64,000 bases of DNA. Origin: Escherichia coli. Lineage in GTDB: Bacteria; Pseudomonadota; Gammaproteobacteria; Enterobacterales; Enterobacteriaceae. How positions within the stretch are numbered: position 1 is the stretch's first letter; every line of letters begins with the position of its first letter. The stretch lies in NCBI RefSeq assembly GCF_013315695.1, contig NZ_CP054353.1, one strand, 5' to 3'. Position numbers and translations under genes: made by a program. Below the pieces are notes generated by a model that worked only from the letters and a program-made list of their open reading frames with translations, did not search any database and was not told the DNA's origin. Below, piece by piece: positions 6,514 to 26,901 of this stretch.

Positions 6514-6551
6514 AGTTAACTTGTGAGTTATTTGTAAAGAATCCATACGCA

Positions 6552-6580: not shown

Positions 6581-6650
6581 TCTATCGTCGGAAAAAGTGT
6601 CTTGTATAAATTGGTGATTTTTCACATAAAGTGTACCTTGTAATTGTGTA

Positions 6651-7919
6651 ATGTTTATGGGGTGTGAGTGCATGGAAAAGAACTACAGAGTTACAACATT
6701 TGTCATGGATAGTGGCGAGCGCTATTGCATGGTAGTGGATCGTGCTTCTGGGCTTCCCATGTATTACCCCACTCTGTTTCTAACAACTCAAATCCGCAAT
6801 AGAGAGGATGCTTTTTCAACGATGTTGGCGGCGGCTAACAACCTGGTTATGTTGTTACGCTTTGTAGAGAGTCGCGACATTGACCTTGAGCAGCGGTTTT
6901 TGACCAAAGACTTCTTCAAGCCACATGAGCTGGATGATCTGCGAGATTTTGCTCAGTGCAAACAAAGAAAGGGGCCATTAACTGTGTCCTCTACCTCTTG
7001 GTTGGCCGATGCGATGACCGATATCGTTGATAACGGGACACAGCATTCCCGGCTAACAACGTTTGCCAACTATTTACACTGGTATGCGATGCATATCTTA
7101 AAGACGACAGAACTGGAAGTTGTCGAAAAGATCAATGCTATGGCGGCGCAGATAAAGACGCGCCGACCATCTAAAAAGCGCAGAAACCACGACTTACAAG
7201 ACAGGTCATTGAGTGATGTTCAATTGGACGCGCTATTTGAAGTCATCCAGCCTAGATCAGAGTTAAACCCTTTCTCAATAGATGTGCAGCGCCGCAATCG
7301 GCTGATGATCTTACTTCTGTTTTATCTTGGCATCCGAGGTGGTGAATTATTAAATATAAGAATACAGGACATAGATTTTAGCGCTAACAGGATCCGTATC
7401 GTTAGGAGAGCAGATGAACAAGCTGACTCTAGAACCAATGAGCCTAATGCTAAAACTAGAGAACGGCTCTTACCGTTGGCTGAATCCTTAGCTCAAGAAC
7501 TGCATAGTTATATCCTTCAAGATCGCCGGAAAGTCAGAAATGCGAAGAAAAATGACTATCTGTTTGTAACTTACAAGAGTGGACCAACTCTGGGAAATCC
7601 TATCTCCAAAGGGGGATATCATAAAATTTTTTCCGTAGTCAGGTCTATATCACCGCAATTGTATGCAGCGACAGGACATTCGCTCCGCCACACTTGGAAT
7701 CGCAAGTTTTCAGAAAGAATGGATGCCATGAATGAGCAAGTCAGCGAGGAACGCCAAGAGCAACTTCGTTCGTACTTAATGGGCTGGAGAGATGGCTCGG
7801 GAACCGCAGCGACTTACAACAAGCGTTTCATTCGGCAAAAAGGTTTTGAGGCCGCCTTGGCATTACAAGCAGGTAACGGCACTAGCTTGCCAGAGGACTT
7901 CAAGGATGACCATGAATAA
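6651..7919 (+). CDS. Tyrosine recombinase 1 of trio (integrase family, 422 aa; start may be the internal Met at 6672)
   Basis: Catalytic signature seen in translation: ...GIRGGELLNI... (Arg), HSLRHTW (His-x-x-Arg), LMGWRDGSGTAATYNKRF (Tyr nucleophile). Confidence 0.8.
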   Translation: MFMGCECMEKNYRVTTFVMDSGERYCMVVDRASGLPMYYPTLFLTTQIRNREDAFSTMLAAANNLVMLLRFVESRDIDLEQRFLTKDFFKPHELDDLRDFAQCKQRKGPLTVSSTSWLADAMTDIVDNGTQHSRLTTFANYLHWYAMHILKTTELEVVEKINAMAAQIKTRRPSKKRRNHDLQDRSLSDVQLDALFEVIQPRSELNPFSIDVQRRNRLMILLLFYLGIRGGELLNIRIQDIDFSANRIRIVRRADEQADSRTNEPNAKTRERLLPLAESLAQELHSYILQDRRKVRNAKKNDYLFVTYKSGPTLGNPISKGGYHKIFSVVRSISPQLYAATGHSLRHTWNRKFSERMDAMNEQVSEERQEQLRSYLMGWRDGSGTAATYNKRFIRQKGFEAALALQAGNGTSLPEDFKDDHE

Positions 7920-9444
7920 CCTCTTACTTGGGTTAGTACCAGAACGAATCCGTGCCAGGGCCAATGGCTACTCTTTTCTGTTGTATGACACATCGTGGAC
8001 ATTGGATAGAAATATCACTATTAATCTTGCTGATATTCACCATTACTTGTCAGATGGGACGCTAGATGGCTGCCTGCGTACACTGGCGTTTTATGCATCC
8101 AATCGTTCTTCTTCTCATACAAAAAATATTCTTGAACGGTTTCAGCACATGCTGCGTGAGACTGACGCGAGAGAAATTACTGATACGGTATTGATTAATT
8201 ATCGGTCGATGCTGTCGCCTGCAACAGAATGGTATCTAGCAACCATCCGTGGCTTTCTTCGATCCTGGCACGAACTGGGCTATCCCGGCATCAGTAAGGA
8301 GGTGAACCGCTTGCTAGATGGCTGGACGCTAAAGGGTAATCGTAAGGGGGATGCGGTTAAGCGCATGGATCCTCAAGAGGGGCCACTGACGGATAATGAG
8401 CTGACAGCGTTTAACGAGGGGGCTGTTCGGGCTTATGAAAAGAGCTTAATTACTATAGCTGAGTTGGCTATAGCACTTGGCACCAGTCATACAGGACGTC
8501 GTCCCATTCAGATCTCGCTGCTTCGTGTGGTCGATGTCCTTTGTGGTAAAAATGGAAAGGGAGAGCCCTTCTATGTGTTGAATGTGCCGCGAGCCAAGCA
8601 GCGCAGCAGCTCTTTCCGAATAAACTTCAAACCATTTGCAATATCACTGGAACTATGGGCAATCCTGAGTGCTCAGGCAAGAAATGCGATTGCGCAGGTT
8701 GAAAATCGTTTGGGGTTTGAATTGCAGGAAGATGACCGGCAGCAAATCCCTCTTTTTCCTGATCTTGATGTGTTAGATGCCGTCCAATCTCCTTATGAAT
8801 TCCGCCAACTGCATGCTACCGACAAACTCCACATTCCCGCCGCAGAGATAACCGACACCCTCCAATACATCGTAGAAAAGTCCGACATCCGGTCGGAACG
8901 TACCGGTGAGCTATTACATATCAATGCTCGTCGTTTTCGTTATACCACAGGCACACGAGCTGCCCGGGAAGGCTTTGGCGAGCTGGTGATTGCGGAACTG
9001 CTTGACCACGCGGACACCCAAAACGCAGGCGTTTACATCAAGAATATCCCCGAGCATGTGAAAAAGCTTGATGAGGCGGTTGGCTTCCAATTAGCACCAT
9101 ACGCTCAGGCCTTTGTCGGGGCACTTGTCGATTCAGAGAGAGACGCGCATCGAGGTAACGACCCTACCAGTCGTATTCGGACCGAAATGGGTCAGGGTGT
9201 TGGTACTTGTGGAGAACATGGCTTTTGTGGTGCCAATGTTCCTATTCCTTGCTACACCTGCATGCATTTCCAGCCTTGGCTGGACGGCCCACATGAAGAT
9301 GTCTATCAAGGACTGCTCAACGAACGTGAACGGGTGAAAGAGATAACTGGCGACATCCAGATTGCTGCCGTACTTGATCGCAGTATTATCGCGCTGGCAG
9401 ATGTGATCATGCGTTGTGCAAAACGTCGTGAAGAGCTTAGTTAA
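7906..9444 (+). CDS. Tyrosine recombinase 2 of trio (about 513 aa)
   Basis: C-terminal region with RRFRYTTGTRAAREG and LLDHADTQNAGVYI (R/H...Y pattern); ATG at 7906 or 7912 overlaps the upstream stop at 7917-7919. The ORF-track start at 7792 is rejected as an overlap artefact. Confidence 0.75.
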   Translation: MTMNNLLLGLVPERIRARANGYSFLLYDTSWTLDRNITINLADIHHYLSDGTLDGCLRTLAFYASNRSSSHTKNILERFQHMLRETDAREITDTVLINYRSMLSPATEWYLATIRGFLRSWHELGYPGISKEVNRLLDGWTLKGNRKGDAVKRMDPQEGPLTDNELTAFNEGAVRAYEKSLITIAELAIALGTSHTGRRPIQISLLRVVDVLCGKNGKGEPFYVLNVPRAKQRSSSFRINFKPFAISLELWAILSAQARNAIAQVENRLGFELQEDDRQQIPLFPDLDVLDAVQSPYEFRQLHATDKLHIPAAEITDTLQYIVEKSDIRSERTGELLHINARRFRYTTGTRAAREGFGELVIAELLDHADTQNAGVYIKNIPEHVKKLDEAVGFQLAPYAQAFVGALVDSERDAHRGNDPTSRIRTEMGQGVGTCGEHGFCGANVPIPCYTCMHFQPWLDGPHEDVYQGLLNERERVKEITGDIQIAAVLDRSIIALADVIMRCAKRREELS

Positions 9445-9460
9445 CAGGGAGCAATAACCA

Positions 9461-11494
9461 ATGGCTGAGATTTTCCTGTTTAAGCCAAAGGCTACGCTGA
9501 CAGCAGCAGAAAACCTTGAAGCATTCATATCCCAGTGCCGAGATCAATTGACTGTATTCGGCTCTGATCTCACTTGGGAAGATCCTGTTTGGCCAAACAT
9601 AACTGTATTTGCCAAGTTGGGCATTATTACGAGAAAACCCATACTGGAAGAGACGCAAGACCCTGCTTTCATTGATTTTGCCAAAGCCTATTTCCGTTAC
9701 CAGCAGGGGCATAGCCTCTCTAGGGCAAAGAATGAAAGTAAAGCCCTCCGTGCGGTTGAGGCGGCTTTGCTTCAAGTAAATGGAAACGCAAATATTGATG
9801 GCCTGTCGATTTCTGTGCTGGATGAAGCAGCTGAATTGGCAAAGCATTACTACTCCGATGGCTCCGCATATCATTGTGGCCGTGAGATTGAGCGGCTGGC
9901 TAAGTTTGTAGCTGAAAACCAGCTTGTATCAAGTGCTGTACAAAATTGGGTCAATCCAATTAAACGTGCAGAGGATAAGAACAAAACGAGCAGAAAGGCG
10001 AAGAAAAATAGGGAAGATAAACTTCCGAGTGATATTGCTCTTAATGCGTTGGCGGAAATTTTTGCCAACGACCCAATTCATGAGCGAGACATATTTACAA
10101 CATCGGTTTTTGCCATGTTGATGTCGGCACCTTCACGTATTACTGAGGTGTTAGCACTGCCTGTGGATTGCGAGGTTTTTGAAACGGATCGTGAAGGGAT
10201 AGAACGATATGGTTGGCGTTTTTTTGCGGGGAAAGGCTATGAGGGTGATATCAAATGGATACCCACCGTGATGGTCGGTATAGCTAAGACAGCCGTAGCT
10301 AGAGCTAGAGTGCTCTCTGAAAATGCACGACAACTGGCCAAGTGGATCGAGAAACACCCGAATAAGTTTTACCGCCATGCTAACTGTCCCAGTGTAGCCG
10401 ATGATGAGCCATTGACGATGAAGCAGGTTTGTATGGCGCTCGGTTTTGCACATTACTCTAAAAAGACGTGCAGGTCGTGTCTTGGTAATCGAGGTTTAGC
10501 TAAAGAGGATGGTGTACATACTCTAAATAGCCTGTGGCAGCACACAATGGCGCGTTTACCGGATGGCTTTCCGTGGTTTGATAAAGACAAGGGAATTAGG
10601 TACAGCAATGCCTTGTTTGTACTGAACGTAAATCAGTTCCACGGGAACAGAGGATGCATACCAGTTGAGTTACATAAGCCAACCAATAATTTCTTCAACA
10701 GTGATCTGACGCCTCGTCTGTCCTTGAAAGGAAAACATGCCAGTATCTTTGATCGCCATGGTTACCATGCTGTAAACGGAGAGCCGGTGAAATTAACCTC
10801 ACATCAGGCTCGACACCTGCTCAACACCATTATCCAGCGCGGTGGCCTGTCAAACTTGGAAATTGCCAAGTGGTCGGGGCGGGCAGATGTGAAACAGAAT
10901 CGAACTTACAACCACATGACTGAATACGAACTGGTTGGCATTGCTGAACGCCTTGATCCCACAACAGCGCTATTTGGGCCTGCTGGCGAGGTGGCAAAGC
11001 ATCTGCCCGTGACTATGCAGGAGTTCAATACCTTAGAGCATGCCGCAGTCCATGTGACGGAGTATGGCTACTGTGTGCATGATTACACCATGAGTCCTTG
11101 TGAGAAATTCCGAGATTGCGTCAATTGTACCGAACAGGTTTGCATCAAAGGCGATGATGCTGAAAAGTTGGATCGCATTAAGATACGTCTGGAGAAATTA
11201 GAGCGACTGTTTTTTCTTGCTGACGCAGCAGTGGAAAGTGGTGAGATAGGAACTGATCGCTGGTATCAGTACCACAAGAAAACTGTTACCCGGCTTCGTG
11301 AACTAGTGGCTATTTTAGAGAATCCAGACATTGAAAATGGTGTCCAGATTAAGCTCCGGGGCAATGATTTCAGCCAGCTTCGCCGTGTTGTCGCAAAGAC
11401 GTCTATTGTGGCCATCGAGCAAAAAGGCAAAGAAAGTGAAGAAGCTGTGATGTTAGATGATTTGACAACTTTGTTAGGAGGTGGCCTTGGCTAA
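9461..11494 (+). CDS. Tyrosine recombinase 3 of trio (677 aa)
   Basis: LTSHQARHLLNT (H-x-x-R-H) and WSGRADVKQNRTYNHM (Tyr) motifs; RBS-like cagggag 8 nt upstream of ATG. Confidence 0.75.
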   Translation: MAEIFLFKPKATLTAAENLEAFISQCRDQLTVFGSDLTWEDPVWPNITVFAKLGIITRKPILEETQDPAFIDFAKAYFRYQQGHSLSRAKNESKALRAVEAALLQVNGNANIDGLSISVLDEAAELAKHYYSDGSAYHCGREIERLAKFVAENQLVSSAVQNWVNPIKRAEDKNKTSRKAKKNREDKLPSDIALNALAEIFANDPIHERDIFTTSVFAMLMSAPSRITEVLALPVDCEVFETDREGIERYGWRFFAGKGYEGDIKWIPTVMVGIAKTAVARARVLSENARQLAKWIEKHPNKFYRHANCPSVADDEPLTMKQVCMALGFAHYSKKTCRSCLGNRGLAKEDGVHTLNSLWQHTMARLPDGFPWFDKDKGIRYSNALFVLNVNQFHGNRGCIPVELHKPTNNFFNSDLTPRLSLKGKHASIFDRHGYHAVNGEPVKLTSHQARHLLNTIIQRGGLSNLEIAKWSGRADVKQNRTYNHMTEYELVGIAERLDPTTALFGPAGEVAKHLPVTMQEFNTLEHAAVHVTEYGYCVHDYTMSPCEKFRDCVNCTEQVCIKGDDAEKLDRIKIRLEKLERLFFLADAAVESGEIGTDRWYQYHKKTVTRLRELVAILENPDIENGVQIKLRGNDFSQLRRVVAKTSIVAIEQKGKESEEAVMLDDLTTLLGGGLG

Positions 11495-11906
11495 GCATCT
11501 GGACAATAGAGACATTAACGCCATCGTAAATCTAATTCGAGGATGGAAGGAACCAAAACTGTCCTGGTCAGCAATTTGTGAGGCGGCAGAACCATTGGTC
11601 GGAAAGTTGCCGTCAAGACAGTCCCTTAATGCACATGAGGCAATAGTGACTGCCTATCAAACAAAGAAAGAGGCGCTTAAAGGCCGTGGCCCCAAAAATC
11701 CGCGTCCAGCTAGTTTGAACATTGCAGCCGCGAGGATTGTGAATCTTGAAAGCGAAATCGAAGAGCTTAAGGAAGAGAACCGGAGGTACAAACAACAGTT
11801 TGTGATCTGGCAATACAATGCATACAAATATGGAATGACAGAACATCAACTTAATGCGCAGCTGACAAAGATTGACCGTGAGCGCTCTGATGGAGAAAGA
11901 AGATAG
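11481..11906 (+). CDS. Small protein (about 140 aa) coupled to recombinase 3; possible ginD-like accessory factor
   Basis: ORF overlaps the 3' end of recombinase 3 (GTG 11481 or TTG 11487 just after aggagg); C-terminal half has coiled-coil character (LESEIEELKEENRRYKQQ). Function not recognisable. Confidence 0.5.
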   Translation: MALAKHLDNRDINAIVNLIRGWKEPKLSWSAICEAAEPLVGKLPSRQSLNAHEAIVTAYQTKKEALKGRGPKNPRPASLNIAAARIVNLESEIEELKEENRRYKQQFVIWQYNAYKYGMTEHQLNAQLTKIDRERSDGERR

Positions 11907-11981
11907 TTGCTGAGTACGATATCGAGGGTACATTTCTCTGTGTAGGGGTAGTTATTTACAAAAAAATAGGAGAATAATTAA

Positions 11982-14900
11982 ATGGTCAAACCAAACTGGG
12001 ATAACTTTAAAGCTAAATTTAGTGAGAATCCTCAAGGTAATTTTGAGTGGTTTTGCTACTTGTTGTTCTGTCAAGAATTCAAAATGCCCGCAGGTATATT
12101 TAGATATAAGAATCAATCTGGTATCGAAACTAATCCAATAACCAAAGATAATGAAATTATCGGTTGGCAATCTAAATTCTATGACACAAAATTGTCGGAT
12201 AACAAAGCTGATCTTATAGAAATGATTGAGAAAAGCAAAAAGGCTTATCCAGGATTAAGTAAAATCATTTTCTATACTAATCAAGAGTGGGGGCAGGGGA
12301 GAAAGTCCCATGAACCTGAAGGCGATAAGAACGCTGATAATTATTTGGAAACTGTCGGAAATAGTAACGATCCCAAAATAAAAATTGAAGTTGATCAGAA
12401 AGCATATGAGTCGGGTATCGAAATAGTATGGAGAGTTGCTAGTTTTTTTGAATCACCGTTTGTAATAGTTGAGAATGAAAAGATTGCTAAACATTTCTTC
12501 TCCCTTAATGAAAGCATCTTTGATTTATTAGAAGAAAAGCGCAAGCACACAGAAAATGTTTTATATGAAATTCAAACCAATATAGAGTTCAAAGACAGAA
12601 GTATTGAAATTGACAGACGACATTGTATAGAACTTCTACATGAGAATCTAGTTCAGAAAAAAATTGTCATCGTCAGCGGAGAAGGTGGGGTTGGAAAAAC
12701 AGCAGTTATCAAAAAAATTTATGAAGCAGAAAAACAATACACTCCTTTCTATGTCTTTAAGGCTAGCGAGTTTAAAAAGGACAGTATTAATGAGCTATTC
12801 GGTGCGCATGGCTTAGACGATTTCTCTAATGCTCATCAAGACGAATTACGTAAAGTCATAGTCGTAGATTCTGCTGAAAAGCTTTTAGAACTGACCAATA
12901 TCGATCCTTTTAAAGAATTCCTGACTGTTTTAATAAAGGATAAATGGCAGGTTGTTTTCACAACCCGTAACAACTACTTGGCAGATCTGAACTATGCTTT
13001 CATAGATATTTATAATATAACTCCTGGAAACTTAGTAATAAAGAACCTTGAACGCGGCGAGCTAATAGAGTTATCTGATAACAATGGATTTAGCCTTCCT
13101 CAAGATGTTCGATTATTAGAACTAATCAAAAATCCATTTTATCTAAGTGAATATTTGAGGTTCTATACCGGTGAAAGCATCGATTATGTGAGCTTCAAAG
13201 AAAAGCTTTGGAATAAGATTATTGTCAAAAATAAACCTTCTCGGGAGCAGTGTTTCTTAGCGACTGCTTTTCAGCGGGCTAGTGAGGGCCAATTTTTTGT
13301 CTCCCCGGCATGTGATACTGGAATTTTAGATGAGTTAGTTAAAGACGGAATTGTCGGCTATGAAGCTGCTGGTTACTTCATTACACATGATATATACGAG
13401 GAATGGGCATTAGAAAAGAAAATTTCTGTCGATTATATCCGTAAAGCGAACAATAACGAGTTCTTCGAAAAAATAGGAGAATCACTTCCTGTTCGCCGTA
13501 GTTTTCGGAATTGGATATCTGAACGATTGCTTTTAGATGACCAGTCCATAAAGCCTTTTATCGCAGAAATAGTCTGTGGAGAAGGAATATCAAATTTTTG
13601 GAAAGACGAGTTATGGGTAGCTGTCCTTCTTTCCGATAATTCAAGCATATTTTTTAATTACTTTAAAAGATATTTACTTAGTAGTGACCAGAATCTATTA
13701 AAAAGACTTACTTTCTTATTGAGGCTTGCTTGCAAGGACGTTGATTACGATCTGCTTAAACAGTTAGGTGTAAGTAATTCAGATCTGCTTTCCATTAAAT
13801 ATGTTCTTACTAAGCCTAAGGGAACTGGTTGGCAGAGTGTGATCCAATTTATCTATGAAAATTTAGATGAAATAGGGATCAGAAATATTAATTTTATACT
13901 TCCTGTGATTCAGGAGTGGAATCAAAGAAACAAAGTGGGTGAAACGACTCGATTATCTAGTTTGATAGCCCTAAAATATTATCAATGGACTGTAGATGAG
14001 GATGTCTATTTATCCGGAAGGGATAATGAGAAAAATATTCTGCATACGATTCTTCATGGGGCGGCCATGATTAAACCTGAAATGGAAGAGGTTTTAGTTA
14101 AGGTTCTTAAAAATAGGTGGAACGAGCACGGTACCCCATATTTCGACCTTATGACCTTAATCCTTACTGACTTAGATTCATATCCGGTTTGGGCATCTCT
14201 CCCGGAATATGTTCTACAATTGGCAGATCTGTTCTGGTATCGGCCACTTAAAGAAACAGGCGAACGTTATCACAGTATGGATATTGAAGATGAGTTCGGT
14301 CTATTTAGGTCTCATCACGACTATTATCCAGAAAGTCCATATCAGACTCCTATATATTGGTTACTACAATCACAGTTCAAAAAAACAATAGACTTTATTC
14401 TTGATTTTACGAACAAGACAACGATATGTTTTGCCCACTCCCATTTTGCTAAAAACGAAATTGAAGAAGTCGATGTCTTTATTGAAGAAGGAAAGTTTAT
14501 AAAGCAATATATATGCAATCGTCTGTGGTGCTCATATCGAGGAACACAGGTCTCTACCTACTTACTTTCATCAATTCATATGGCATTGGAAAAATTTTTT
14601 CTTGAGAATTTTAAAAATGCAGACTCGAAAGTGTTGGAAAGTTGGCTTCTTTTCTTGTTAAGAAATACCAAGTCAGCTTCTATTTCTGCAGTAGTTACGA
14701 GTATTGTACTTGCATTCCCTGAGAAGACATTCAATGTAGCTAAAGTACTATTCCAAACAAAGGATTTCTTCCGTTTTGATATGAATCGAATGGTTCTAGA
14801 CAGAACACATAAAAGTTCATTAATCTCCCTCAGGGATGGCTTTGGCGGTACAGATTACAGAAACTCTTTGCACGAAGAAGATAGAATTAAAGCTTGCGAT

Positions 14901-16745
14901 GATGTGCATAGAAATACTTATCTTGAAAATCTTGCCTTGCATTATCAAATTTTCAGGAGTGAAAATGTAACGGAGAAAGATGTCATTGAAAGGCAACAAG
15001 TGCTCTGGGGTATTTTCGATAAATACTATAATCAGCTTCCAGATGAAGCTCAAGAAACTGAAGCCGATAAGACGTGGAGGCTCTGCTTGGCAAGAATGGA
15101 TCGGCGAAAGATGAAAATAACTACCAAGGAGAAAGATGAAGGGATTGAGATATCATTCAATCCTGAGATTGACCCTAAACTAAAGCAATATAGTGAGGAA
15201 GCAATAAAGAAAAACTCCGAGCATATGAAGTATGTAACGCTGAAACTATGGGCAAGCTATAAAAGAGAAAAGGATGAACGTTATAAGAATTATGGAATGT
15301 ATGAGGACAATCCGCAAATTGCTTTACAAGAGACCAAAGAAATAATAAAAAAGCTTAATGAGGAAGGGGGTGAAGATTTCAGACTATTAAATGGTAATAT
15401 ACCAGCAGACGTTTGTTCTGTATTACTGTTAGATTACTTTAATCAGTTGAATAATGAAGAGAGAGAATATTGTAAAGATATTGTTCTAGCATATTCTCAA
15501 CTTCCGTTGAAGGAAGGCTATAATTATCAGGTACAAGATGGGACAACCTCGGCAATTTCAGCCTTACCCGTGATTTATCATAATTATCCAATGGAAAGGG
15601 AGACTATAAAAACAATATTACTTTTGACACTGTTTAATGACCACTCTATTGGAATGGCAGGTGGGCGCTACTCAGTATTTCCTAGTATGGTGATTCATAA
15701 ATTATGGCTAGACTATTTTGATGATATGCAGTCTCTATTGTTTGGTTTTTTGATTTTAAAGCCAAAGTATGTAATTCTTTCAAGAAAAATCATTCATGAA
15801 AGTTATCGTCAAGTAGACTATGACATTAAAAAAATAAATATTAATAAGGTGTTTTTAAATAACTATAAGCATTGCATATCAAATGTCATCGATAATAAAA
15901 TATCTATAGATGATTTGGGAAGTATAGATATAGTTGATCTACATATTTTGAACACAGCTTTCCAATTAATTCCAGTTGATACTGTTAATATTGAACATAA
16001 GCAATTGGTTTCCTTAATTGTTAAAAGATTTTCTACAAGCCTATTGTCAAGTGTTCGAGAAGATAGAGTTGATTACGCTCTTCGGCAGTCTTTCTTGGAA
16101 AGATTTGCCTACTTTACGCTTCATGCGCCCGTGAGCGATATTCCCGATTATATAAAACCTTTTCTTGATGGTTTCAACGGTTCAGAGCCTATTTCAGAGT
16201 TATTTAAAAAATTTATTCTCGTCGAAGATAGATTAAATACTTACGCCAAATTTTGGAAGGTTTGGGATTTGTTTTTTGATAAAGTGGTTACTTTGTGCAA
16301 GGATGGAGATAGGTATTGGTATGTAGATAAAATTATAAAAAGTTACCTTTTTGCTGAATCTCCATGGAAAGAAAACTCTAATGGTTGGCACACATTTAAA
16401 GATAGCAATAGTCAATTCTTTTGCGATGTATCTAGGACTATGGGCCATTGCCCTTCAACTTTATATTCTCTTGCCAAATCTTTGAATAACATTGCCAGTT
16501 GCTATCTTAATCAAGGTATAACCTGGCTTTCAGAAATGTTGTCGGTTAATAAAAAGCTATGGGAAAAGAAATTGGAAAATGATACTGTTTATTTTTTAGA
16601 ATGTTTGGTTAGGCGGTATATTAACACTGAGCGTGAGCGAATTAGACGAACCAAACAGTTGAAAGAAGAGGTCTTAGTAATATTGGATTTTTTGGTAGAG
16701 AAAGGATCTGTTGTTGGTTATATGTCACGGGAAAATATTCTGTGA
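11982..16745 (+). CDS. Large STAND-type P-loop NTPase (1587 aa): N-terminal unknown domain (about 1-220), NTPase core (about 225-330), about 1250-aa helical C-terminal region; candidate anti-phage (Avs-like) protein
   Basis: Strong RBS (aggag, 9-nt spacer). Walker A GEGGVGKT (aa 233-240), Walker B VIVVDSAE (aa 292-299), TTR motif in QVVFTTRN (aa 323-330) typical of STAND NTPases. Very AT-rich codon usage; no transmembrane or secretion signals noticed. Confidence 0.8.
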   Translation: MVKPNWDNFKAKFSENPQGNFEWFCYLLFCQEFKMPAGIFRYKNQSGIETNPITKDNEIIGWQSKFYDTKLSDNKADLIEMIEKSKKAYPGLSKIIFYTNQEWGQGRKSHEPEGDKNADNYLETVGNSNDPKIKIEVDQKAYESGIEIVWRVASFFESPFVIVENEKIAKHFFSLNESIFDLLEEKRKHTENVLYEIQTNIEFKDRSIEIDRRHCIELLHENLVQKKIVIVSGEGGVGKTAVIKKIYEAEKQYTPFYVFKASEFKKDSINELFGAHGLDDFSNAHQDELRKVIVVDSAEKLLELTNIDPFKEFLTVLIKDKWQVVFTTRNNYLADLNYAFIDIYNITPGNLVIKNLERGELIELSDNNGFSLPQDVRLLELIKNPFYLSEYLRFYTGESIDYVSFKEKLWNKIIVKNKPSREQCFLATAFQRASEGQFFVSPACDTGILDELVKDGIVGYEAAGYFITHDIYEEWALEKKISVDYIRKANNNEFFEKIGESLPVRRSFRNWISERLLLDDQSIKPFIAEIVCGEGISNFWKDELWVAVLLSDNSSIFFNYFKRYLLSSDQNLLKRLTFLLRLACKDVDYDLLKQLGVSNSDLLSIKYVLTKPKGTGWQSVIQFIYENLDEIGIRNINFILPVIQEWNQRNKVGETTRLSSLIALKYYQWTVDEDVYLSGRDNEKNILHTILHGAAMIKPEMEEVLVKVLKNRWNEHGTPYFDLMTLILTDLDSYPVWASLPEYVLQLADLFWYRPLKETGERYHSMDIEDEFGLFRSHHDYYPESPYQTPIYWLLQSQFKKTIDFILDFTNKTTICFAHSHFAKNEIEEVDVFIEEGKFIKQYICNRLWCSYRGTQVSTYLLSSIHMALEKFFLENFKNADSKVLESWLLFLLRNTKSASISAVVTSIVLAFPEKTFNVAKVLFQTKDFFRFDMNRMVLDRTHKSSLISLRDGFGGTDYRNSLHEEDRIKACDDVHRNTYLENLALHYQIFRSENVTEKDVIERQQVLWGIFDKYYNQLPDEAQETEADKTWRLCLARMDRRKMKITTKEKDEGIEISFNPEIDPKLKQYSEEAIKKNSEHMKYVTLKLWASYKREKDERYKNYGMYEDNPQIALQETKEIIKKLNEEGGEDFRLLNGNIPADVCSVLLLDYFNQLNNEEREYCKDIVLAYSQLPLKEGYNYQVQDGTTSAISALPVIYHNYPMERETIKTILLLTLFNDHSIGMAGGRYSVFPSMVIHKLWLDYFDDMQSLLFGFLILKPKYVILSRKIIHESYRQVDYDIKKININKVFLNNYKHCISNVIDNKISIDDLGSIDIVDLHILNTAFQLIPVDTVNIEHKQLVSLIVKRFSTSLLSSVREDRVDYALRQSFLERFAYFTLHAPVSDIPDYIKPFLDGFNGSEPISELFKKFILVEDRLNTYAKFWKVWDLFFDKVVTLCKDGDRYWYVDKIIKSYLFAESPWKENSNGWHTFKDSNSQFFCDVSRTMGHCPSTLYSLAKSLNNIASCYLNQGITWLSEMLSVNKKLWEKKLENDTVYFLECLVRRYINTERERIRRTKQLKEEVLVILDFLVEKGSVVGYMSRENIL

Positions 16746-16790
16746 TGTAGTTGAAAATAATAATTTTAATGAGAGCTTTTCCAATTTAGG

Positions 16791-16815
16791 CTCCAGGGAT
16801 TGGAGCCTTTTTATT
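16791..16815 (+). terminator. Intrinsic terminator after the large NTPase gene
   Basis: Hairpin ggctccaggg-a-ttggagcc followed by tttttatt. Confidence 0.6.
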
Positions 16816-16840
16816 ATCGAAAAGATTAATATCTTATAAG

Positions 16841-17059
16841 TCAATCAGTAAAACGCAGCAAAGCTCGTTGCTCTTGAATGTTCACTCCGTGATAAATTCT
16901 TTGATTACCACATAAATAACAAGAACAAGCACAAGGGGTGCAGTAAATTTTCCCTACAACTTTTTCAGTTTTAGCCAACGCAATTCGATATGTTTTTCTC
17001 TTAGATTTTAACCGAGATATATGATGACGACGCCATGCCCGATTTCTAACCATTTCCAT
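16841..17059 (-). CDS. Small basic Cys-rich hypothetical protein (72 aa)
   Basis: ORF with GGAG-type RBS; Arg/Lys-rich N-terminus and a CTPCACSCYLCG cysteine cluster (possible zinc ribbon). No family recognised. Confidence 0.3.
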   Translation of the reverse strand: MEMVRNRAWRRHHISRLKSKRKTYRIALAKTEKVVGKIYCTPCACSCYLCGNQRIYHGVNIQEQRALLRFTD

Positions 17060-17283
17060 TCACTCCAATTTTCTACCGCGGTGTTATACCGCGCCCGTAT
17101 CAATCTTTGGAGTTCGATATCGATCTGACCTTTCATGAATACCTCGGAATTTATCAATAAAGTGAGTGCTATATCATAGCTTATGGGATGAAAGTTTGAT
17201 ATTTAGCACTTTTCAGCTTTAGGTAAAGCTGTCCTCAATAAAGCTAATTTCTTGTTTATTAATGGAATTTCTATGTGGAAGTG

Positions 17284-18105
17284 TTAGAAATCCTGTTTTA
17301 CTTTATCCATCGTTAAAACTTTACTTATTATATAAGGATCATAATTTCTTATACTCATAAGGCAATTTATCAAATTGGAAACGTGGCTATCATCAGGTAT
17401 AAGTATATATTTAATATCATCGAAAGAAAAACCAATGCCAAATTCAGAGAATTTTTTACTTAAGACGGCCTTCTGGTTAGGTTCCACCACTCGCTCTAAA
17501 TTTAGGCTAGGCCATAAATCGCCAACAAACGGATGCGGTACATATCTCCATTCTTTTTCGTCAGCGTAGATATAATTCTCAATGGTTTTTTCGTTCGTCC
17601 TTTCTAATTTCCCTTTATAATTTTTCATATAGCGTAATAAATTATAAAGGTCAGCGTACTCTTCTTTAAGGCTTTCAAAATACTTACGCTCTTTATTATC
17701 AAGGATATGCCTTTTCGACCATAGCGGAATTAACGCATCCTTTAGTTTTCTAATTCTTTTATTATACTTTGAAAATAATTCACTGCCTTGATTCATGTAT
17801 AGAACGGGATGGAGATCATTTTTCTCAGCCCATTCTTTTGTTAACCCAAATCCAAATTCACCATATTTTCCACTATGATCTTTAATCTGAGAAAGCTTGA
17901 TGTCACAGAATGAAACCATTGGTACTGCGAAATTTCTTCTTCCTTTTACTCCGACTATGCGTTCACGGGCAAGAAATGGTTTAAAATAGAGTTCTGTTAA
18001 AATGCTATAGAATGCCTCTTCATTTTTAGTAAAGTGAAACAACGTTGTTGGATGTAAACTATTAACTGCTTGTATAACTGTTTCTTGGTTTTCTATAGCA
18101 CTCAT
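17284..18105 (-). CDS. AbiGi-like abortive-infection family protein (273 aa)
   Basis: N-terminal LFHFTKNEEAFYSILTE... resembles, by recall, the FHFT-type N-terminus of AbiGi-family proteins; AT-rich; convergent with the NTPase gene. Confidence 0.55.
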   Translation of the reverse strand: MSAIENQETVIQAVNSLHPTTLFHFTKNEEAFYSILTELYFKPFLARERIVGVKGRRNFAVPMVSFCDIKLSQIKDHSGKYGEFGFGLTKEWAEKNDLHPVLYMNQGSELFSKYNKRIRKLKDALIPLWSKRHILDNKERKYFESLKEEYADLYNLLRYMKNYKGKLERTNEKTIENYIYADEKEWRYVPHPFVGDLWPSLNLERVVEPNQKAVLSKKFSEFGIGFSFDDIKYILIPDDSHVSNLINCLMSIRNYDPYIISKVLTMDKVKQDF

Positions 18106-18483
18106 ATATTAACTGTTCCATAGTGTAAAACCTGACTTAGCAAAGGTTATCATACTAGTCTTTGTACTGTAAGCACACTTGGTTTAATTCCACGCACTTT
18201 TTGAGATTTCCGGTTTTTTGATCTCTTACCAAAATCTATGCCAGATTGAATCAAAGGTCCGAGCTGGGTCACCAAAAAAAGTAAAATTATGCACTTTGAT
18301 AGATTATATTTTAACTAAATTCTTTACAGTTAAATCATTTCTTATGCCTTAGTTTCTGATAAAAAAGGTTTTTTTTCACGATTTATAAGTATCAGGTTAT
18401 GTGAACCGTTCTGATTTGTCGTTAAAACAATAGGTTATATTGTTTTAAGGTGGATGATTAAAGCATCTGCCAGCCATAAAAAA

Positions 18484-18506
18484 GAAGCCTCCGTTTTGGA
18501 GGCTTC
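18484..18506 (-). terminator. Terminator downstream of yjcB (backbone)
   Basis: Hairpin gaagcctccg-ttt-tggaggcttc with an A-run on the plus strand (U-run on the minus strand), immediately after the yjcB stop. Confidence 0.5.
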
Positions 18507-18512
18507 TACATA

Positions 18513-21221: not shown

Positions 21222-21686
21222 ATGGAAAAGAAATTACCCCGCATTAAAGCGCTGCTAACCCCCGGCGAAGTGGCGAAACGCAGCGGTGTGGCGGTATCGG
21301 CGCTGCATTTCTATGAAAGCAAAGGGTTGATTAGCAGTATCCGTAATAGTGGCAATCAGCGGCGATATAAACGTGATGTGTTGCGATATGTCGCAATCAT
21401 CAAAATTGCTCAGCGTATTGGCATTCCGCTGGCGACCATTCGTGAAGCATTTGGCGTGTTGCCCGAAGGGCATACATTAAGTGCGAAAGAGTGGAAACAG
21501 CTTTCGTCCCAATGGCGAGAAGAGTTGGATCGGCGCATTCATACCTTAGTGGCGCTGCGTGACGAACTGGACGGATGTATTGGTTGTGGCTGCCTTTCGC
21601 GCAGTGATTGCCCATTGCGTAACCCGGGCGACCGCTTAGGAGAAGAAGGCACAGGCGCACGCTTGCTGGAAGATGAACAAAACTAA
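21222..21686 (+). CDS. soxR: MerR-family redox sensor SoxR (154 aa)
   Basis: MerR HTH at the N-terminus and the C-terminal [12 protein letters not shown] [2Fe-2S] cluster motif. Confidence 0.95.
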
Positions 21687-21830
21687 AGCGCCACAAGGGC
21701 GCTTTAGTTTGTTTTCCGGTCTTTGTCTTTCTCTCTATCCCGCTGGTACACAGGAGGGTTTCCCCCGACGTCAACACACCTCATTCGAGCACGTGGTGGA
21801 GGTTCCGGTTGGTGTTGATGCTTTAATTGT
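21687..21830 (-). ncRNA. ryjA: Candidate small RNA RyjA (convergent with the soxR 3' end); coordinates approximate
   Basis: From recall of the K-12 map only (sRNA between soxR and the ghxP gene); the soxR terminator hairpin aaagcgccacaagggcgcttt is present. Not verifiable by eye. Confidence 0.3.
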
Positions 21831-22231
21831 ATGTTACCGGCGTTTCTTCGCCAGTGTAAAAGTACACTTTTTAGCCGCAATATTTTTGTCATCTCAGACG
21901 ATTTTTTATCGCAATCCTGAACGGTATACGGTTCGATAACGCTGCAATCTTGCGCATCGACGATAACGTTTGCGCATCAATTGCCTGGTTTTTCATCGTC
22001 AAGACAATAAAAGAGAAAAAAGCAGCAAACTTCGGTTGAAAAAGCCGCTATGATCGCCGGATAATCGTTTGCTTTTTTTACCACCCGTTTTGTATGCGCG
22101 GAGCTAAACGTTTGCTTTTTTGCGACGCACCAATTTGTCGCAAACCTGGAGCAGGAAGATAACGTTTCGCTGGCAGGGGATTGTCCGCCACGCATCTTGA
22201 CGAAAATTAAACTCTCAGGGGATGTTTTCTT

Positions 22232-23581
22232 ATGTCTACGCCATCAGCGCGTACCGGCGGTTCACTCGACGCCTGGTTTAAAATTTCACAACGTGGAAGC
22301 ACTGTCCGTCAGGAAGTGGTTGCCGGGTTAACAACGTTTCTGGCGATGGTCTACTCGGTTATCGTCGTTCCAGGCATGTTGGGTAAAGCGGGCTTCCCGC
22401 CTGCGGCAGTTTTCGTTGCGACCTGTCTGGTTGCCGGACTCGGTTCTATCGTGATGGGTCTGTGGGCTAATCTGCCGTTGGCGATTGGTTGCGCCATCTC
22501 CCTGACGGCGTTTACCGCATTCAGTCTGGTGCTGGGGCAACATATTAGCGTACCTGTCGCGCTGGGTGCCGTGTTCCTGATGGGTGTGCTGTTTACGGTC
22601 ATTTCTGCCACGGGTATCCGTAGCTGGATTTTGCGCAACTTGCCGCACGGTGTGGCGCACGGCACGGGGATCGGTATCGGTCTGTTCCTGCTGCTGATTG
22701 CTGCGAATGGTGTCGGTCTGGTGATTAAAAACCCGCTTGATGGTCTGCCCGTTGCGCTGGGTGATTTCACGACCTTTCCGGTGATGATGTCACTGGTAGG
22801 TCTGGCGGTGATCATCGGCCTGGAAAAACTGAAAGTCCCTGGTGGCATTCTGCTGACCATTATCGGTATCTCAATTGTCGGTTTGATCTTCGATCCTAAC
22901 GTCCATTTCTCCGGCGTTTTCGCTATGCCTTCATTGAGCGATGAAAACGGCAATTCACTGATTGGCAGCCTGGATATTATGGGCGCGCTGAATCCTGTAG
23001 TCCTGCCAAGCGTTCTGGCGCTGGTGATGACGGCAGTATTTGATGCCACCGGAACTATCCGCGCCGTCGCCGGTCAGGCGAACCTGCTGGATAAAGACGG
23101 GCAGATCATCGACGGCGGGAAAGCACTGACCACTGACTCCATGAGTAGCGTTTTCTCTGGCCTGGTGGGTGCAGCTCCGGCAGCGGTATACATCGAGTCT
23201 GCGGCGGGTACGGCGGCGGGCGGTAAAACCGGGTTGACGGCTATCACCGTTGGCGTGCTGTTCCTGCTGATTCTGTTCCTCTCTCCGCTCTCTTACCTCG
23301 TTCCGGGGTACGCAACGGCTCCGGCGTTGATGTACGTTGGCCTGCTGATGCTGAGCAACGTGGCGAAAATCGACTTTGCTGATTTTGTTGATGCGATGGC
23401 GGGTCTGGTTACGGCGGTATTCATCGTGCTGACCTGTAACATCGTAACAGGCATCATGATCGGCTTCGCGACTCTGGTGATTGGTCGTCTGGTTTCCGGC
23501 GAATGGCGCAAGTTGAACATCGGTACGGTCGTTATTGCCGTGGCGCTGGTGACCTTCTATGCGGGTGGCTGGGCTATCTAA
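22232..23581 (+). CDS. ghxP: Guanine/hypoxanthine permease (NCS2 family, 449 aa)
   Basis: Polytopic membrane protein of 449 aa in the conserved position after soxR. Confidence 0.92.
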
Positions 23582-23605
23582 TCTTACATAGGATTCTGAA
23601 AACGG

Positions 23606-23618
23606 GTGGCAATGGCTG
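23606..23618. repeat. IS4 target-site duplication, left copy (gtggcaatggctg)
   Basis: Identical 13-mer directly abuts both IS4 ends. Confidence 0.8.
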
Positions 23619-25044
23619 TAATGCCAGTCAGTTAAGCAACTGACTGGCTCTTTTTCGGGGCTGTGGGGTATTTCCAGGGCCTCTCCTTTACCACTCTCGG
23701 GAAGGCCCTTTCCCTTCTTGTCGGTAATTTCACAAGTTGTCCCATACTTGCAAGATCGCGCATCAGCTCCGGTATACGTCCCGGTGAAGCGCCCTGCAAT
23801 GTCATCAGCATTCTCATCACCATTCCGCATGATTCTGAGAAACTCAGTTGATTCGGCCAGTAACCTTTCAGATGTTCCGCCATTTTAATCATCTGATATC
23901 TCACCAGATTATAAGCCAGTAAGACACCCCACAGCTCTTGCTCCACAAGCTCCGGTTTTTTACTTCTCAGCGTCAGCCTGCTCAGTTGCATCGTCTGTTT
24001 TATCTCCCTGTATCCCAGTTCGATTTCCCAGCGATGACTGTACAGATCCGCCATTTCTCCTCCGGGGAAGCGCATGGCGTCCGTCATCGACGTCAGCAGA
24101 TGGCAGACTTTTCCTTTGCGCGTCACGGTCAGCAGGCGGGCTGTCACTTCATTTCCCAGTCCCGGCCACTTTTTTCGTGCCTGCGGGCTGGTTTTCAGCT
24201 TCACCAGATGATCGCCTTTACCCAGTTTTCTGATCTCTTCATATTGCGCTCCCTTTCTGAGAGGTATCATCCAGTGGCGGTGTTCTCCCGCCAGGCTCCA
24301 GGCATTTAACAGTCCCAGTGAGTAATAACCTTTATCCATTAACGTCAGAGTGTTATCGCCGGTTTGTTCTATAAGTTGCTCAGCAAGCTCATTTTCGCTG
24401 TTCTTCATCGTGCCGAAGGCTGCAGCCGTCAGCAGATGGCTGGTCAGTTCCATCTGGCAGACCATTTTGACCTGCGGGTAGAGCGCCGGGTTCCCGGCAT
24501 GTGTCTGGCGGGGGAAGGCTGCATCGTTCTCTGGTGTATCCGGTGTGCGCCAGAACACACCATCGATGGCCAGCAGGGTCAGGCCGCACCAGTGCGGATG
24601 CGGCGTGGCGTTATGCCAGAGCTGCGCTGTTTTCGTGAACACGCGGCGGACAGCCTCACTTCCCAGGCGCTGGCGGGCCTGAATAACGGCACTGGGGGCA
24701 ACGAAGGGGCGATTGCCCGGCAGCATGATGTCCAGGCGATTCACAATCTGGTGAAGAGGTTCTTTACGCTCAAGCGCCATGCCAACAATACACCAGACCA
24801 TCATTTCGAGGGGAAGACGGCGCTTGCGTAGCGTTACAGTACCTGATTCGGCAAGGCAACGAGAGATGAGTTCGGGGTCGAGGTAATCCCCCAGAGAAGT
24901 CAGTGGGTTACGCAGAGAATCGTAACGGGATACCAGATCAAGAGCCTGTCCAATGTGCATAAAAAAATCCGGAAACAAGTGAGCGTTTCCGGATTCTTAC
25001 ACAGCCACTGGATCGGTCAACTGATCCTTAACTGATCGGCATTA
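23619..25044 (-). mobile_element. Insertion sequence IS4, complete (1426 bp)
   Basis: Terminal inverted repeats TAATGCCAGTCAGTTAAG (left) and CTTAACTGATCGGCATTA (right, 16/18 match); length 1426 bp equals canonical IS4; single transposase ORF. Confidence 0.9.
23632..24978 (-). CDS. insG: IS4 transposase (DDE family, 448-aa ORF)
   Basis: ORF fills the IS; translation recognised as IS4 transposase by recall. Confidence 0.88.
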
Positions 25045-25057
25045 GTGGCAATGGCTG
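25045..25057. repeat. IS4 target-site duplication, right copy (gtggcaatggctg)
   Basis: Identical to 23606-23618. Confidence 0.8.
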
Positions 25058-25170
25058 CCCGTTTTTATTTTCTCCGCACATTGTGTGAGCTTTTGCGATA
25101 TTCTGAAAAAATGAGAATTCAGGCATAACGCCTTTCTCAGATCATAAAAAACATCGCAAACAGGGAACGC

Positions 25171-26820
25171 ATGGAAATCTTCTTCACCATACTGATAATG
25201 ACCCTCGTGGTCTCGCTGTCCGGGGTGGTCACTCGTGTCATGCCCTTTCAGATCCCGCTTCCGCTTATGCAAATCGCCATCGGTGCGCTACTGGCGTGGC
25301 CGACGTTTGGTTTGCATGTGGAGTTTGATCCTGAACTCTTTTTAGTCTTGTTTATCCCGCCGTTGCTGTTCGCTGATGGCTGGAAAACGCCGACCCGTGA
25401 ATTTCTCGAACATGGGCGAGAGATTTTCGGCCTCGCGCTGGCGCTGGTGGTGGTCACCGTGGTCGGCATTGGCTTCCTTATTTACTGGGTGGTGCCGGGC
25501 ATTCCGCTGATCCCCGCCTTTGCGCTGGCGGCGGTGCTTTCTCCGACCGATGCTGTGGCGCTCTCCGGGATTGTTGGCGAAGGGCGCATCCCGAAAAAAA
25601 TCATGGGCATTTTGCAGGGCGAAGCGTTGATGAATGACGCCTCTGGCCTGGTGTCGTTGAAGTTTGCCGTAGCAGTGGCGATGGGGACGATGATCTTCAC
25701 CGTCGGTGGTGCGACGGTCGAATTTATGAAAGTGGCCATTGGCGGTATTCTCGCCGGTTTTGTGGTGAGCTGGCTGTACGGTCGCTCGCTGCGATTCCTC
25801 AGCCGCTGGGGCGGTGATGAACCCGCGACGCAGATCGTCCTGCTGTTCCTGCTGCCATTCGCTTCTTATCTGATTGCCGAACATATTGGCGTTTCCGGTA
25901 TCCTCGCTGCGGTTGCCGCCGGGATGACCATCACCCGCTCCGGTGTGATGCGCCGTGCGCCGCTGGCAATGCGCCTGCGCGCAAACAGTACCTGGGCGAT
26001 GCTGGAATTTGTCTTTAACGGCATGGTATTCCTGCTGTTAGGTCTGCAGCTGCCGGGTATTCTGGAGACATCGCTGATGGCGGCAGAAATCGACCCTAAC
26101 GTCGAAATCTGGATGCTGTTTACCGATATCATTCTGATTTATGCGGCGCTGATGCTGGTCCGTTTCGGCTGGCTGTGGACGATGAAAAAGTTCAGCAACC
26201 GCTTCCTGAAGAAGAAGCCGATGGAGTTTGGTTCGTGGACCACACGAGAAATCCTGATCGCGTCTTTCGCCGGGGTGCGTGGGGCGATCACTCTGGCTGG
26301 TGTGCTCTCTATCCCGCTGCTCTTGCCGGATGGTAACGTCTTCCCGGCGCGCTATGAGCTGGTATTCCTGGCGGCTGGTGTCATTCTCTTCTCGCTGTTT
26401 GTCGGCGTGGTGATGTTGCCTATTCTGCTACAACACATTGAAGTCGCGGACCATTCGCAACAATTGAAAGAGGAACGTATTGCGCGAGCGGCAACGGCAG
26501 AAGTGGCGATTGTGGCGATCCAGAAAATGGAGGAGCGTCTGGCGGCGGATACCGAAGAGAATATCGATAACCAGCTGCTCACAGAGGTTAGTTCTCGCGT
26601 CATTGGTAACCTGCGTCGTCGCGCCGATGGACGTAACGACGTTGAAAGTTCCGTGCAGGAAGAGAACCTTGAGCGTCGCTTCCGTCTGGCGGCATTGCGT
26701 TCTGAACGTGCTGAACTGTACCACCTGCGCGCCACGCGGGAGATCAGCAACGAAACGCTGCAAAAATTACTGCACGATCTCGATTTGCTTGAAGCGTTGT
26801 TGATTGAAGAGAACCAATAA
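25171..26820 (+). CDS. yjcE: Putative Na+/H+ (cation/proton) exchanger, CPA1 family (549 aa)
   Basis: Polytopic membrane N-terminal domain plus charged C-terminal tail; conserved position. Confidence 0.9.
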   Translation: MEIFFTILIMTLVVSLSGVVTRVMPFQIPLPLMQIAIGALLAWPTFGLHVEFDPELFLVLFIPPLLFADGWKTPTREFLEHGREIFGLALALVVVTVVGIGFLIYWVVPGIPLIPAFALAAVLSPTDAVALSGIVGEGRIPKKIMGILQGEALMNDASGLVSLKFAVAVAMGTMIFTVGGATVEFMKVAIGGILAGFVVSWLYGRSLRFLSRWGGDEPATQIVLLFLLPFASYLIAEHIGVSGILAAVAAGMTITRSGVMRRAPLAMRLRANSTWAMLEFVFNGMVFLLLGLQLPGILETSLMAAEIDPNVEIWMLFTDIILIYAALMLVRFGWLWTMKKFSNRFLKKKPMEFGSWTTREILIASFAGVRGAITLAGVLSIPLLLPDGNVFPARYELVFLAAGVILFSLFVGVVMLPILLQHIEVADHSQQLKEERIARAATAEVAIVAIQKMEERLAADTEENIDNQLLTEVSSRVIGNLRRRADGRNDVESSVQEENLERRFRLAALRSERAELYHLRATREISNETLQKLLHDLDLLEALLIEENQ

Positions 26821-26840
26821 CGCTTGGCGGTGTAATCGGT

Positions 26841-26867
26841 AAAAAGGTGCAGTACATCGCACCTTTT
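26841..26867. terminator. Bidirectional terminator between convergent yjcE and actP
   Basis: Hairpin aaaaggtgc-agtacatc-gcaccttttt with A/T runs on both sides. Confidence 0.6.
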
Positions 26868-26901
26868 TACCGTTGGTCAGGTGACCAGAGGCTAGTGGAG
26901 A

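Follow-up and report, generated by a model that had tools for sequence, protein, structure and literature searches.

An IS4 element interrupts the spacer between ghxP and yjcE in the Escherichia coli stretch presented here (64,000 nucleotides, referred to below as the window), and it lies within the hairpin that appears to end ghxP transcription. This position raises the question of how the element came to be there, and whether either of the neighboring genes would be affected by it. The reading that we hold with high confidence is that an apparently functional IS4 recently transposed into the ghxP terminator at a site typical of its targets, and that the insertion is likely near-neutral, with termination probably supplied by a substitute hairpin.

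The IS4 element and its empty site

The element and its surroundings comprise the following features (window coordinates).

22232–23581, plus strand: ghxP coding sequence (guanine/hypoxanthine transporter), an open reading frame annotated as ghxP in the collinear genomes MSB1_4I and AF3
23599–23618, plus strand: left half of the split ghxP terminator, with A-tract, ascending stem, loop and the first bases of the descending stem; contains the left duplication (the hairpin is intact in K-12)
23606–23618, no strand: target-site duplication, left copy, GTGGCAATGGCTG
23619–25044, minus strand: IS4, 1426 bp, transposase reading towards ghxP
23619–23636, no strand: IRR, terminal inverted repeat at the transposase 3' end, TAATGCCAGTCAGTTAAG
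23632–24960, minus strand: IS4 transposase gene (InsG-type), 442 amino acids plus stop, no internal stop in the translation
25027–25044, no strand: IRL, terminal inverted repeat at the transposase 5' end
25045–25057, no strand: target-site duplication, right copy, GTGGCAATGGCTG
25045–25071, plus strand: right half of the split ghxP terminator, with the duplicated 13-mer, the remaining descending stem and the T-tract, leaving a 5-bp mini-hairpin and T-tract
25171–26820, plus strand: yjcE (Na+/H+ antiporter family), the downstream gene

Direct reading and a script both identified positions 23619–25044 as a complete IS4 of exactly 1426 bp in minus orientation. The element opens with TAATGCCAGTCAGTTAAG and closes with the reverse complement of TAATGCCGATCAGTTAAG, and the two terminal repeats match at 16 of 18 positions, in agreement with an earlier note on this DNA, which had described a complete 1426-bp IS4 with 18-bp imperfect inverted repeats. 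The end motif occurs at two places in the 64-kb window, namely the two ends of IS4, compared with 0.06 expected by chance. The length lies inside the range of the IS4 subgroup (1400–1650 bp; PMC2266710), and the ends, with AATG at positions 2–5 and TTA at positions 14–16, agree with the subgroup signature -AATR--------WTW- (Table 1 of PMC2266710). The target duplication, perfect over 13 bp at ghxP, likewise falls within the 10–13 bp that define the subgroup.

The transposase gene starts with an ATG at 24960 on the minus strand, and its 442-codon frame closes at 23632 as a single, unframeshifted reading frame. Its product matched the NCBIfam model NF033592 (IS4 family transposase) with 304.5 bits against a cut-off of 115, and the Pfam domains Nterm_IS4 (PF13006) and DDE_Tnp_1 (PF01609) are recorded for a protein identical to it. 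A 15-residue stretch of the translation also fits Y(2)R(3)E(6)K, the signature of the IS4 family (PMC2266710), with the DDE assignment made at the domain level. As far as a sequence can show, the element has all the defining features of IS4, and it is 100% identical in nucleotides to copies in IAI39, CE10, NCTC86 and many other E. coli genomes.

The 13-mer GTGGCAATGGCTG at 23606–23618 is repeated perfectly at 25045–25057; the adjoining bases differ on either side, and the 13-mer has no further exact occurrence in the window. When the IS4 flanks are joined, they give GAAAACGGGTGGCAATGGCTGCCCGTTTTT, which was found at the same position in K-12 MG1655, FDAARGOS_497, MS 21-1, AF14 and AF10. In K-12 MG1655, yjcE directly follows ghxP with the spacer GGATTCTGAAAACGGGTGGCAATGGCTGCCCGTTTTTATTTTCTCC, and the 13-mer is present once there, as in all the other empty sites examined. 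Because the joined flanks equal the sequence of genomes with an empty site, the 13-mers represent a true target-site duplication, as had been claimed. The comparison with reference genomes that the earlier note had proposed gave the same picture beyond K-12: the 400-bp reconstructed empty site was uninterrupted in 5,412 of 5,426 complete E. coli genomes.

These comparisons also bear on the idea that no real transposition took place, the 13-mers on either side being a chance repeat or one that was already there, or the element being an artefact of assembly. Every empty site examined has a single copy of the 13-mer, about 0.09 chance occurrences would be expected in the window with one mismatch allowed, and the junction is common to three independently assembled complete genomes. 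Nothing was found in favor of this idea, and we regard it as ruled out by the empty-site comparisons with K-12, FDAARGOS_497, MS 21-1, AF14 and AF10 for all practical purposes.

Distribution, age and recurrence of the insertion

The ghxP–IS4 junction was present in only 3 of the 5,426 complete E. coli genomes: MSB1_4I, AF3 and PK6. Of these, MSB1_4I, from a rectal swab in Australia, and AF3, from a blood culture in the UK, belong to the same clone as the window strain, and MSB1_4I differs from the window by six SNPs across the entire 64 kb. MS 21-1, AF14 and AF10 are nearly identical as well, with 10–12 SNPs relative to the window over approximately 25 kb of flanking DNA, yet they carry the empty site with one 13-mer; the insertion therefore arose within this clone. 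FDAARGOS_497 also has an empty site; it was dropped as a close empty-site relative in favor of these three genomes, being about 0.5% diverged from the window. The insertion is thus recent, within one E. coli clone comprising the window strain, MSB1_4I and AF3.

Within this clone, MSB1_4I and AF3 each have one private substitution in the ghxP-site IS4. Codon reading assigned these to a W124-to-stop change in the MSB1_4I transposase, which carries the "internal stop" flag from PGAP, and to R84S in AF3, with the window copy unmutated at both sites. The window lineage had 18 IS4 matches compared with a median of 1 per genome, hinting indirectly, together with the empty sites of the near relatives, that the element is mobile; the 5,426 complete genomes hold about 5,300 chromosomal copies in all. 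In this human-associated E. coli lineage, whose IS4 content is expanded, the ghxP-site IS4 is a rare marker of a single sub-clone. PGAP has already annotated the insertion in two public genomes, and both the element and the insertion are ordinary. Our literature search returned no paper mentioning both IS4 and yjcE, nor one on this insertion.

The third genome, PK6 (a pig isolate from Cuba), matches the window in the nucleotide at which IS4 is inserted, in the orientation of the element and in its 13-bp duplication. Such coincidence might suggest that PK6 and the window lineage share one ancestral insertion, passed on by homologous recombination, in which case the ghxP site would be no hot spot. 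However, the PK6 flanks are about 2% diverged from the window (29 of 1,350 positions in ghxP and 30 of 1,650 in yjcE), and they differ right up to the element, the nearest substitutions lying 29 and 33 bp away on the left and 87 bp on the right. The two IS4 copies differ at 9 nucleotides and represent two transposase alleles, each of them widespread. In addition, the site is empty in the genomes closest to the window strain, and independent repeated IS4 insertions are directly visible at other terminators (described below). A single event spread by recombination seems very unlikely to us in light of these differences. Because its flanks are diverged and its IS4 allele is a different one, PK6 probably represents an independent insertion rather than shared ancestry.

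A further strain, 23CRST011, carries IS200C in the ghxP–yjcE spacer, where its match to the empty site runs to position 212, which is 12 nt past the 13-mer. For annotation, this spacer can be viewed as a recurrent landing pad, occupied twice by IS4 and once by IS200C. The earlier note had called the insertion strain-specific, which the genome counts bear out; as the unrelated PK6 is occupied at the same site, "rare, recurrent hot-spot insertion" would be a better description.

Expected effects on ghxP and yjcE

The empty site reads as a convincing intrinsic (Rho-independent) terminator of ghxP. It starts 17 nt past the ghxP stop codon and consists of a 14-bp stem followed by TTTTTATTTT, with UUUUUAUUUU as the U-tract after the 14 pairs. 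The target folds with −18.4 kcal/mol, and the intact terminator has a z-score of −4.75 relative to shuffled sequences. K-12 and the near relatives carry this 14-bp stem and T-tract, confirming the earlier proposal that the joined flanks restore a ghxP terminator hairpin with a U-tract. A literature search on the transcription units of ghxP or yjcE found nothing. Three features within IS4 are relevant to transcription across the two junctions.

23623–23655, plus strand: IS4-borne terminator-like hairpin with an 11-bp stem (23623–23648), loop AAGC, then TCTTTTT (terminator scan; retained in the junction RNA fold)
24961–24995, minus strand: hairpin with an 11-bp stem and a seven-U run, directly upstream of the transposase ATG (RNA fold of 24950–25057, minus strand, and sequence)
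24993–25020, minus strand: promoter-like site for the transposase, TTGACC, 16-nt spacer and AAGAAT, with TG before the second hexamer (consensus scan, pattern match only)

The hairpin at the ghxP-facing end, GCCAGTCAGTT-AAGC-AACTGACTGGC followed by TCTTTTT, starts 5 nt inside the element. Because this end of IS4 has its own terminator-like hairpin, termination of ghxP has probably been replaced rather than lost, with the IS4-borne hairpin as the likely substitute. Transcripts of ghxP would then be expected to end approximately 30–40 nt further downstream, at this hairpin and without read-through. More generally, since IS4 appears to bring its own terminator-like hairpin, an insertion sequence inside a terminator need not imply read-through.

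At the opposite end, the hairpin and U7 run at 24995–24961 are placed between the promoter-like TTGACC-16-AAGAAT and the transposase ATG. This hairpin looks terminator-like for transcription arriving from the yjcE side, and the arrangement would block outside transcription and hold transposase expression low. IS4 would in this way have terminator-like hairpins just inside both ends, each facing incoming transcription.

On the yjcE side, 126 nt lie between the last IS4 base at 25044 and the ATG at 25171, which fits the distance of 127 bp given previously. The 113 bp from the old terminator stem to the yjcE ATG are unchanged, and the spacer is identical in empty-site relatives. A consensus scan of the plus strand from 24900 to 25170 detected no consensus-level outward promoter towards yjcE, and an outward or hybrid IS4 promoter was rejected as a candidate within this region. 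Because a consensus scan of the ghxP–yjcE spacer in both the window and K-12 detected no yjcE promoter, an upstream yjcE element displaced by 1.44 kb, or the loss of read-through from ghxP, could matter.

The insertion might instead be regulatory or adaptive, kept because, through loss of the terminator and the 1.4 kb of foreign DNA placed 126 nt ahead of yjcE, it alters ghxP 3'-end formation or stability, drives antisense transcription into ghxP, or changes yjcE expression. Consistent with such a role, the native 14-bp-stem terminator is physically split, the insertion is retained in all three sub-clone members (window strain, MSB1_4I and AF3), and PK6 is occupied at the same site. RNA folding also indicated no U-run after the minus-strand hairpin past the transposase stop codon, so transposase transcripts could run on as weak antisense transcription into ghxP. 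However, the ghxP side of the element carries a hairpin and T-tract of its own, no outward promoter-like site faces yjcE, and the yjcE-proximal 113 bp are intact. Presence in so few genomes gives no sign of selective spread, the ghxP-site IS4 is already mutated in both MSB1_4I (W124-to-stop) and AF3 (R84S), and the recurrence is accounted for by target preference. We consider a regulatory or adaptive role improbable. Recent transposition into a typical target remains the preferred reading, and its net effect is most likely that of a near-neutral insertion, where we infer both the neutrality and the substitute termination from sequence.

IS4 target preference and comparison with known systems

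Target preference was assessed with 34 IS4 copies having recognizable duplications, which represent 24 distinct loci with the ghxP locus counted; this sample came from a few genomes picked by a look-up tool and is no census. Duplications ranged from 11 to 14 bp across the 24 loci. When the 48 arms were aligned on the cut, A occupied positions −8 to −4 in 34, 38, 46, 45 and 37 of the 48 arms, respectively. Positions −3 to −1 were mostly G or C, and C was found at +1 and at +4 in 35 of 48 arms each. A hairpin fold of −11 kcal/mol or lower was present in 15 of 24 reconstructed targets compared with 2.9% of random window sites (p = 7e-18), and an A-tract together with a T-tract was present in 14 of 24 compared with 0.6% of random sites (p = 3e-25).

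Many of these targets lie between convergent genes or just past the 3' end of a gene (eno, rpoD-mug, degS-mdh, raiA-bamD and adhE-tdk), and the sampled targets look like bidirectional intrinsic terminators. A strong hairpin was missing in 9 of the 24, including the K-12 site (−8.1 kcal/mol), and recognition therefore appears to depend on the arm sequence, not on terminator function. Different strains were found to be occupied at the same terminators, with other duplications, cut positions or orientations, namely four times at eno and twice each at adhE-tdk and raiA-bamD. Given this re-use with differing cuts and orientations, recurrent independent IS4 insertions are the norm.

When a weight matrix was trained with the ghxP site left out, it placed the ghxP terminator second among the loci of the IS-free window (62.6 kb) and the actual ghxP cut pair 7th of 250,084. 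The ghxP target, AAAA plus 20 nt plus TTTTT, is an exact fit to AAA-N20-TTT, the target consensus for IS4 that Mayaux and co-workers reportedly described in 1984. Classical IS4 insertions are likewise said to lie at specific sites (galT and the pheST attenuator), as reportedly found by Klaer and co-workers in 1981 and by Mayaux and co-workers in 1984. The earlier note was correct in locating the insertion in the ghxP terminator, whereas it treated that location as incidental; judging from the 24-locus sample, it is a typical IS4 target.

Partial similarity to the flanks was also seen elsewhere, in matches starting some 20 nt ahead of the end of the IS; this reflects the IS4 target consensus shared between sites, one instance being CGGCAATGGCTG at the php site. 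A REP-like or multi-copy target was ruled out, as each genome has the 400-bp empty site only once. The target preference seen here agrees with De Palmenaer et al. A literature search for IS4 in connection with terminators or target specificity found nothing specific; eight new IS4 insertions, four of them non-coding, were recorded in mutation-accumulation lines in a study that mentions IS4 in passing (PMC5009759), and another contains only a passing mention (PMC11708052).

Based on these patterns, the IS4 transposase prefers pseudo-palindromic targets whose arms approximate AAAAA-N-S-S, cut, C-N-S-C, with the two cuts 11–14 bp apart. In E. coli, this arm pattern is mostly provided by terminator hairpins with an A-tract and a T-tract, and the ghxP terminator is one of these. 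An apparently functional IS4 copy transposed into the intrinsic terminator hairpin behind ghxP, and staggered cuts 13 bp apart, once filled in, produced the GTGGCAATGGCTG duplication. The ghxP insertion illustrates IS4 target choice in clean, textbook fashion, and has little significance beyond bookkeeping. A preference for terminators flanked by A- and T-tracts could, however, help to predict IS4 hot spots and to interpret IS4-mediated rearrangements.

A broader proposal is that IS4 is "terminator-homing." It would recognize bidirectional intrinsic terminators by their A/T-tract arms, the cuts falling about 3 nt inside the tracts, the duplication length would be set by the size of the hairpin, and the inward-facing terminators at both ends of the element would restore the lost function. 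We offer this tentatively and would not quite favor it; the homing rule and the terminator-replacement idea rest on a small, non-random sample and on readings of sequence. If true, terminator-homing would amount to a safe-harbor strategy and would explain the repeated use of eno, adhE-tdk, raiA-bamD and ghxP in unrelated strains. While the arm consensus has long been known, a genome-wide terminator rule and functional replacement by the element may never have been spelled out.

The closest comparison is with the IS4 of K-12 MG1655 (insG, b4278), annotated as "insertion sequence:IS4" at 4502090–4503515 of NC_000913.3, beside nanX and 222 kb from ghxP–yjcE; K-12 thus has its single IS4 elsewhere, as the earlier note had stated, and an empty ghxP–yjcE site. 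The two copies share the length of 1426 bp, the same terminal repeats, a 442-amino-acid transposase and 1,422 of 1,426 bases (4 differences), and the AAA...TTT arm pattern is found at the K-12 target as well. They differ in setting, with nanX as neighbor in K-12 and the ghxP terminator in the window, and in duplication length, which is 12 bp in K-12 compared with 13 bp here. The K-12 target is also the weaker hairpin, at −8.1 compared with −18.4 kcal/mol for the ghxP target. The pheST attenuator resembles the ghxP target in being a terminator hairpin, and the classical duplications are likewise said to be 11–13 bp long. Relative to the classical AAA-N20-TTT, the 24-locus sample suggests a sharper rule, in which each cut lies about 3 nt inside its tract, with a flexible spacing of 11–14 bp.

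Other insertion sequences are also known to use hairpin-forming targets. IS1397 and ISKpn1 insert in REP sequences or BIMEs, and ISRm22, a member of the IS4 family, inserts in Sinorhizobium REPs (Tobes & Pareja 2006, PMC1525189). These elements and the IS4 described here have in common the insertion into intergenic, hairpin-forming palindromes, which limits gene disruption. In contrast to the targets of the REP-homing elements, the IS4 targets here are single-copy terminators with A- and T-tracts rather than members of a repeat family. The IS200C of 23CRST011 represents a different insertion sequence in the same ghxP terminator region; it belongs to the IS200/IS605 family and, unlike the IS4 of the window, is inserted after the T-tract and not within the hairpin.

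Occupants of the ghxP–yjcE spacer

The 400-bp empty-site query, which reconstructs the uninterrupted ghxP–yjcE site, was searched in complete E. coli genomes, and the site was non-intact in 9 of the 5421 genomes that matched it. The occupant was identified in four of these nine, as IS4 in three and as IS200C in one:

NZ_AP045770.1, strain 23CRST011, locus 4200-5025: IS200C copy in the ghxP–yjcE spacer

The insertion point of this IS200C lies directly past the T-tract of the ghxP terminator, with the match to the empty-site query stopping at query position 212.

The ghxP IS4 copies of both clone-mates of the window strain, MSB1_4I and AF3, already carry private mutations. In MSB1_4I, a C>T change at window position 24590 converts W124 to an amber codon and the copy is annotated as a pseudogene, and in AF3 a G>T change at 24711 gives R84S. 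Over the 64 kb compared, one of the six SNPs between MSB1_4I and the window is located within the 1.4-kb IS4.

The ssb island and the surrounding genes

Another insertion was identified in the window:

6512-18405: island of 11.9 kb inserted at the ssb 3' end, with a CCGTTCT repeat on each border
11982-16745, + strand: AVAST type 4 (Avs4) anti-phage nuclease, in the island
17284-18105, - strand: AbiGi-family protein, in the island

Besides the Avs4 nuclease and the AbiGi-family protein, the island encodes two tyrosine recombinases and two hypothetical proteins. The insertion leaves ssb with TAG, not TGA, as its stop codon. Genome comparison showed that MSB1_4I and AF3 also carry the island; it is absent in MS 21-1, AF14 and AF10, the near-identical relatives with an empty ghxP–yjcE site, nor in K-12, PK6 (a diverged third carrier of the ghxP IS4) or FDAARGOS_497 (about 0.5% diverged, empty site). 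Given its presence in the clone-mates and absence from close relatives, the island is a further recent acquisition of the sub-clone that holds the ghxP IS4.

The remaining annotated features of interest are as follows:

21679-21819, - strand: SraL/RyjA, an Hfq-binding sRNA (Rfam), between soxR and ghxP
42014-42068, - strand: SECIS element of fdhF (Rfam)
47726-49711, - strand: alkyl/aryl-sulfatase gene, internal stop annotated in MSB1_4I
51603-52583, - strand: alsC (D-allose permease), internal stop annotated in MSB1_4I

None of the six differences between the window and MSB1_4I falls inside the alsC or sulfatase intervals, and the window therefore has both pseudogenes too. SraL/RyjA is overlapped on the opposite strand by an ORF that PGAP annotates as a hypothetical protein (21673-21939). 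The 64-kb window contains no tRNA genes. Downstream of the IS4, yjcE directly adjoins actP, with 26821-26901 between them. The pentapeptide-repeat gene yjcF/espX5 lies between these two genes in K-12 and PK6; it is missing there in the window lineage and FDAARGOS_497.

IS4 targets and copy number across E. coli

The ssb/yjcB hairpin AAAAAGAAGCCTCCGTTTTGGAGGCTTCT, at about 18479-18511, is unoccupied in the window, and its equivalent in another strain (GCA_964053375.1) holds an IS4 flanked by a duplication of 13 bp. A weight matrix of IS4 target arms, run over the IS-free window, places this hairpin among the top loci, although its training set included the locus itself. One copy elsewhere has no target duplication:

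NC_011750.1, 3330711-3334131, E. coli IAI39: IS4 copy without target duplication

It is flanked on the left by a truncated phosphodiester-glycosidase gene and on the right by half of the eno terminator (CAGCCCGAAGGCTGgcattttt). This pattern is the mark left when two IS4 copies recombine, and so of an IS4-mediated rearrangement.

IS4 copy number is very uneven across E. coli, with a median of 1 place per IS4-carrying genome and a maximum of 32. A genome-wide IS4 search found 15-16 places in IAI39 and CE10, and a junction search found 18 in the window's clone (MSB1_4I, AF3). With 18 places against a median of 1, the window lineage is therefore a member of the IS4-expanded minority of E. coli.
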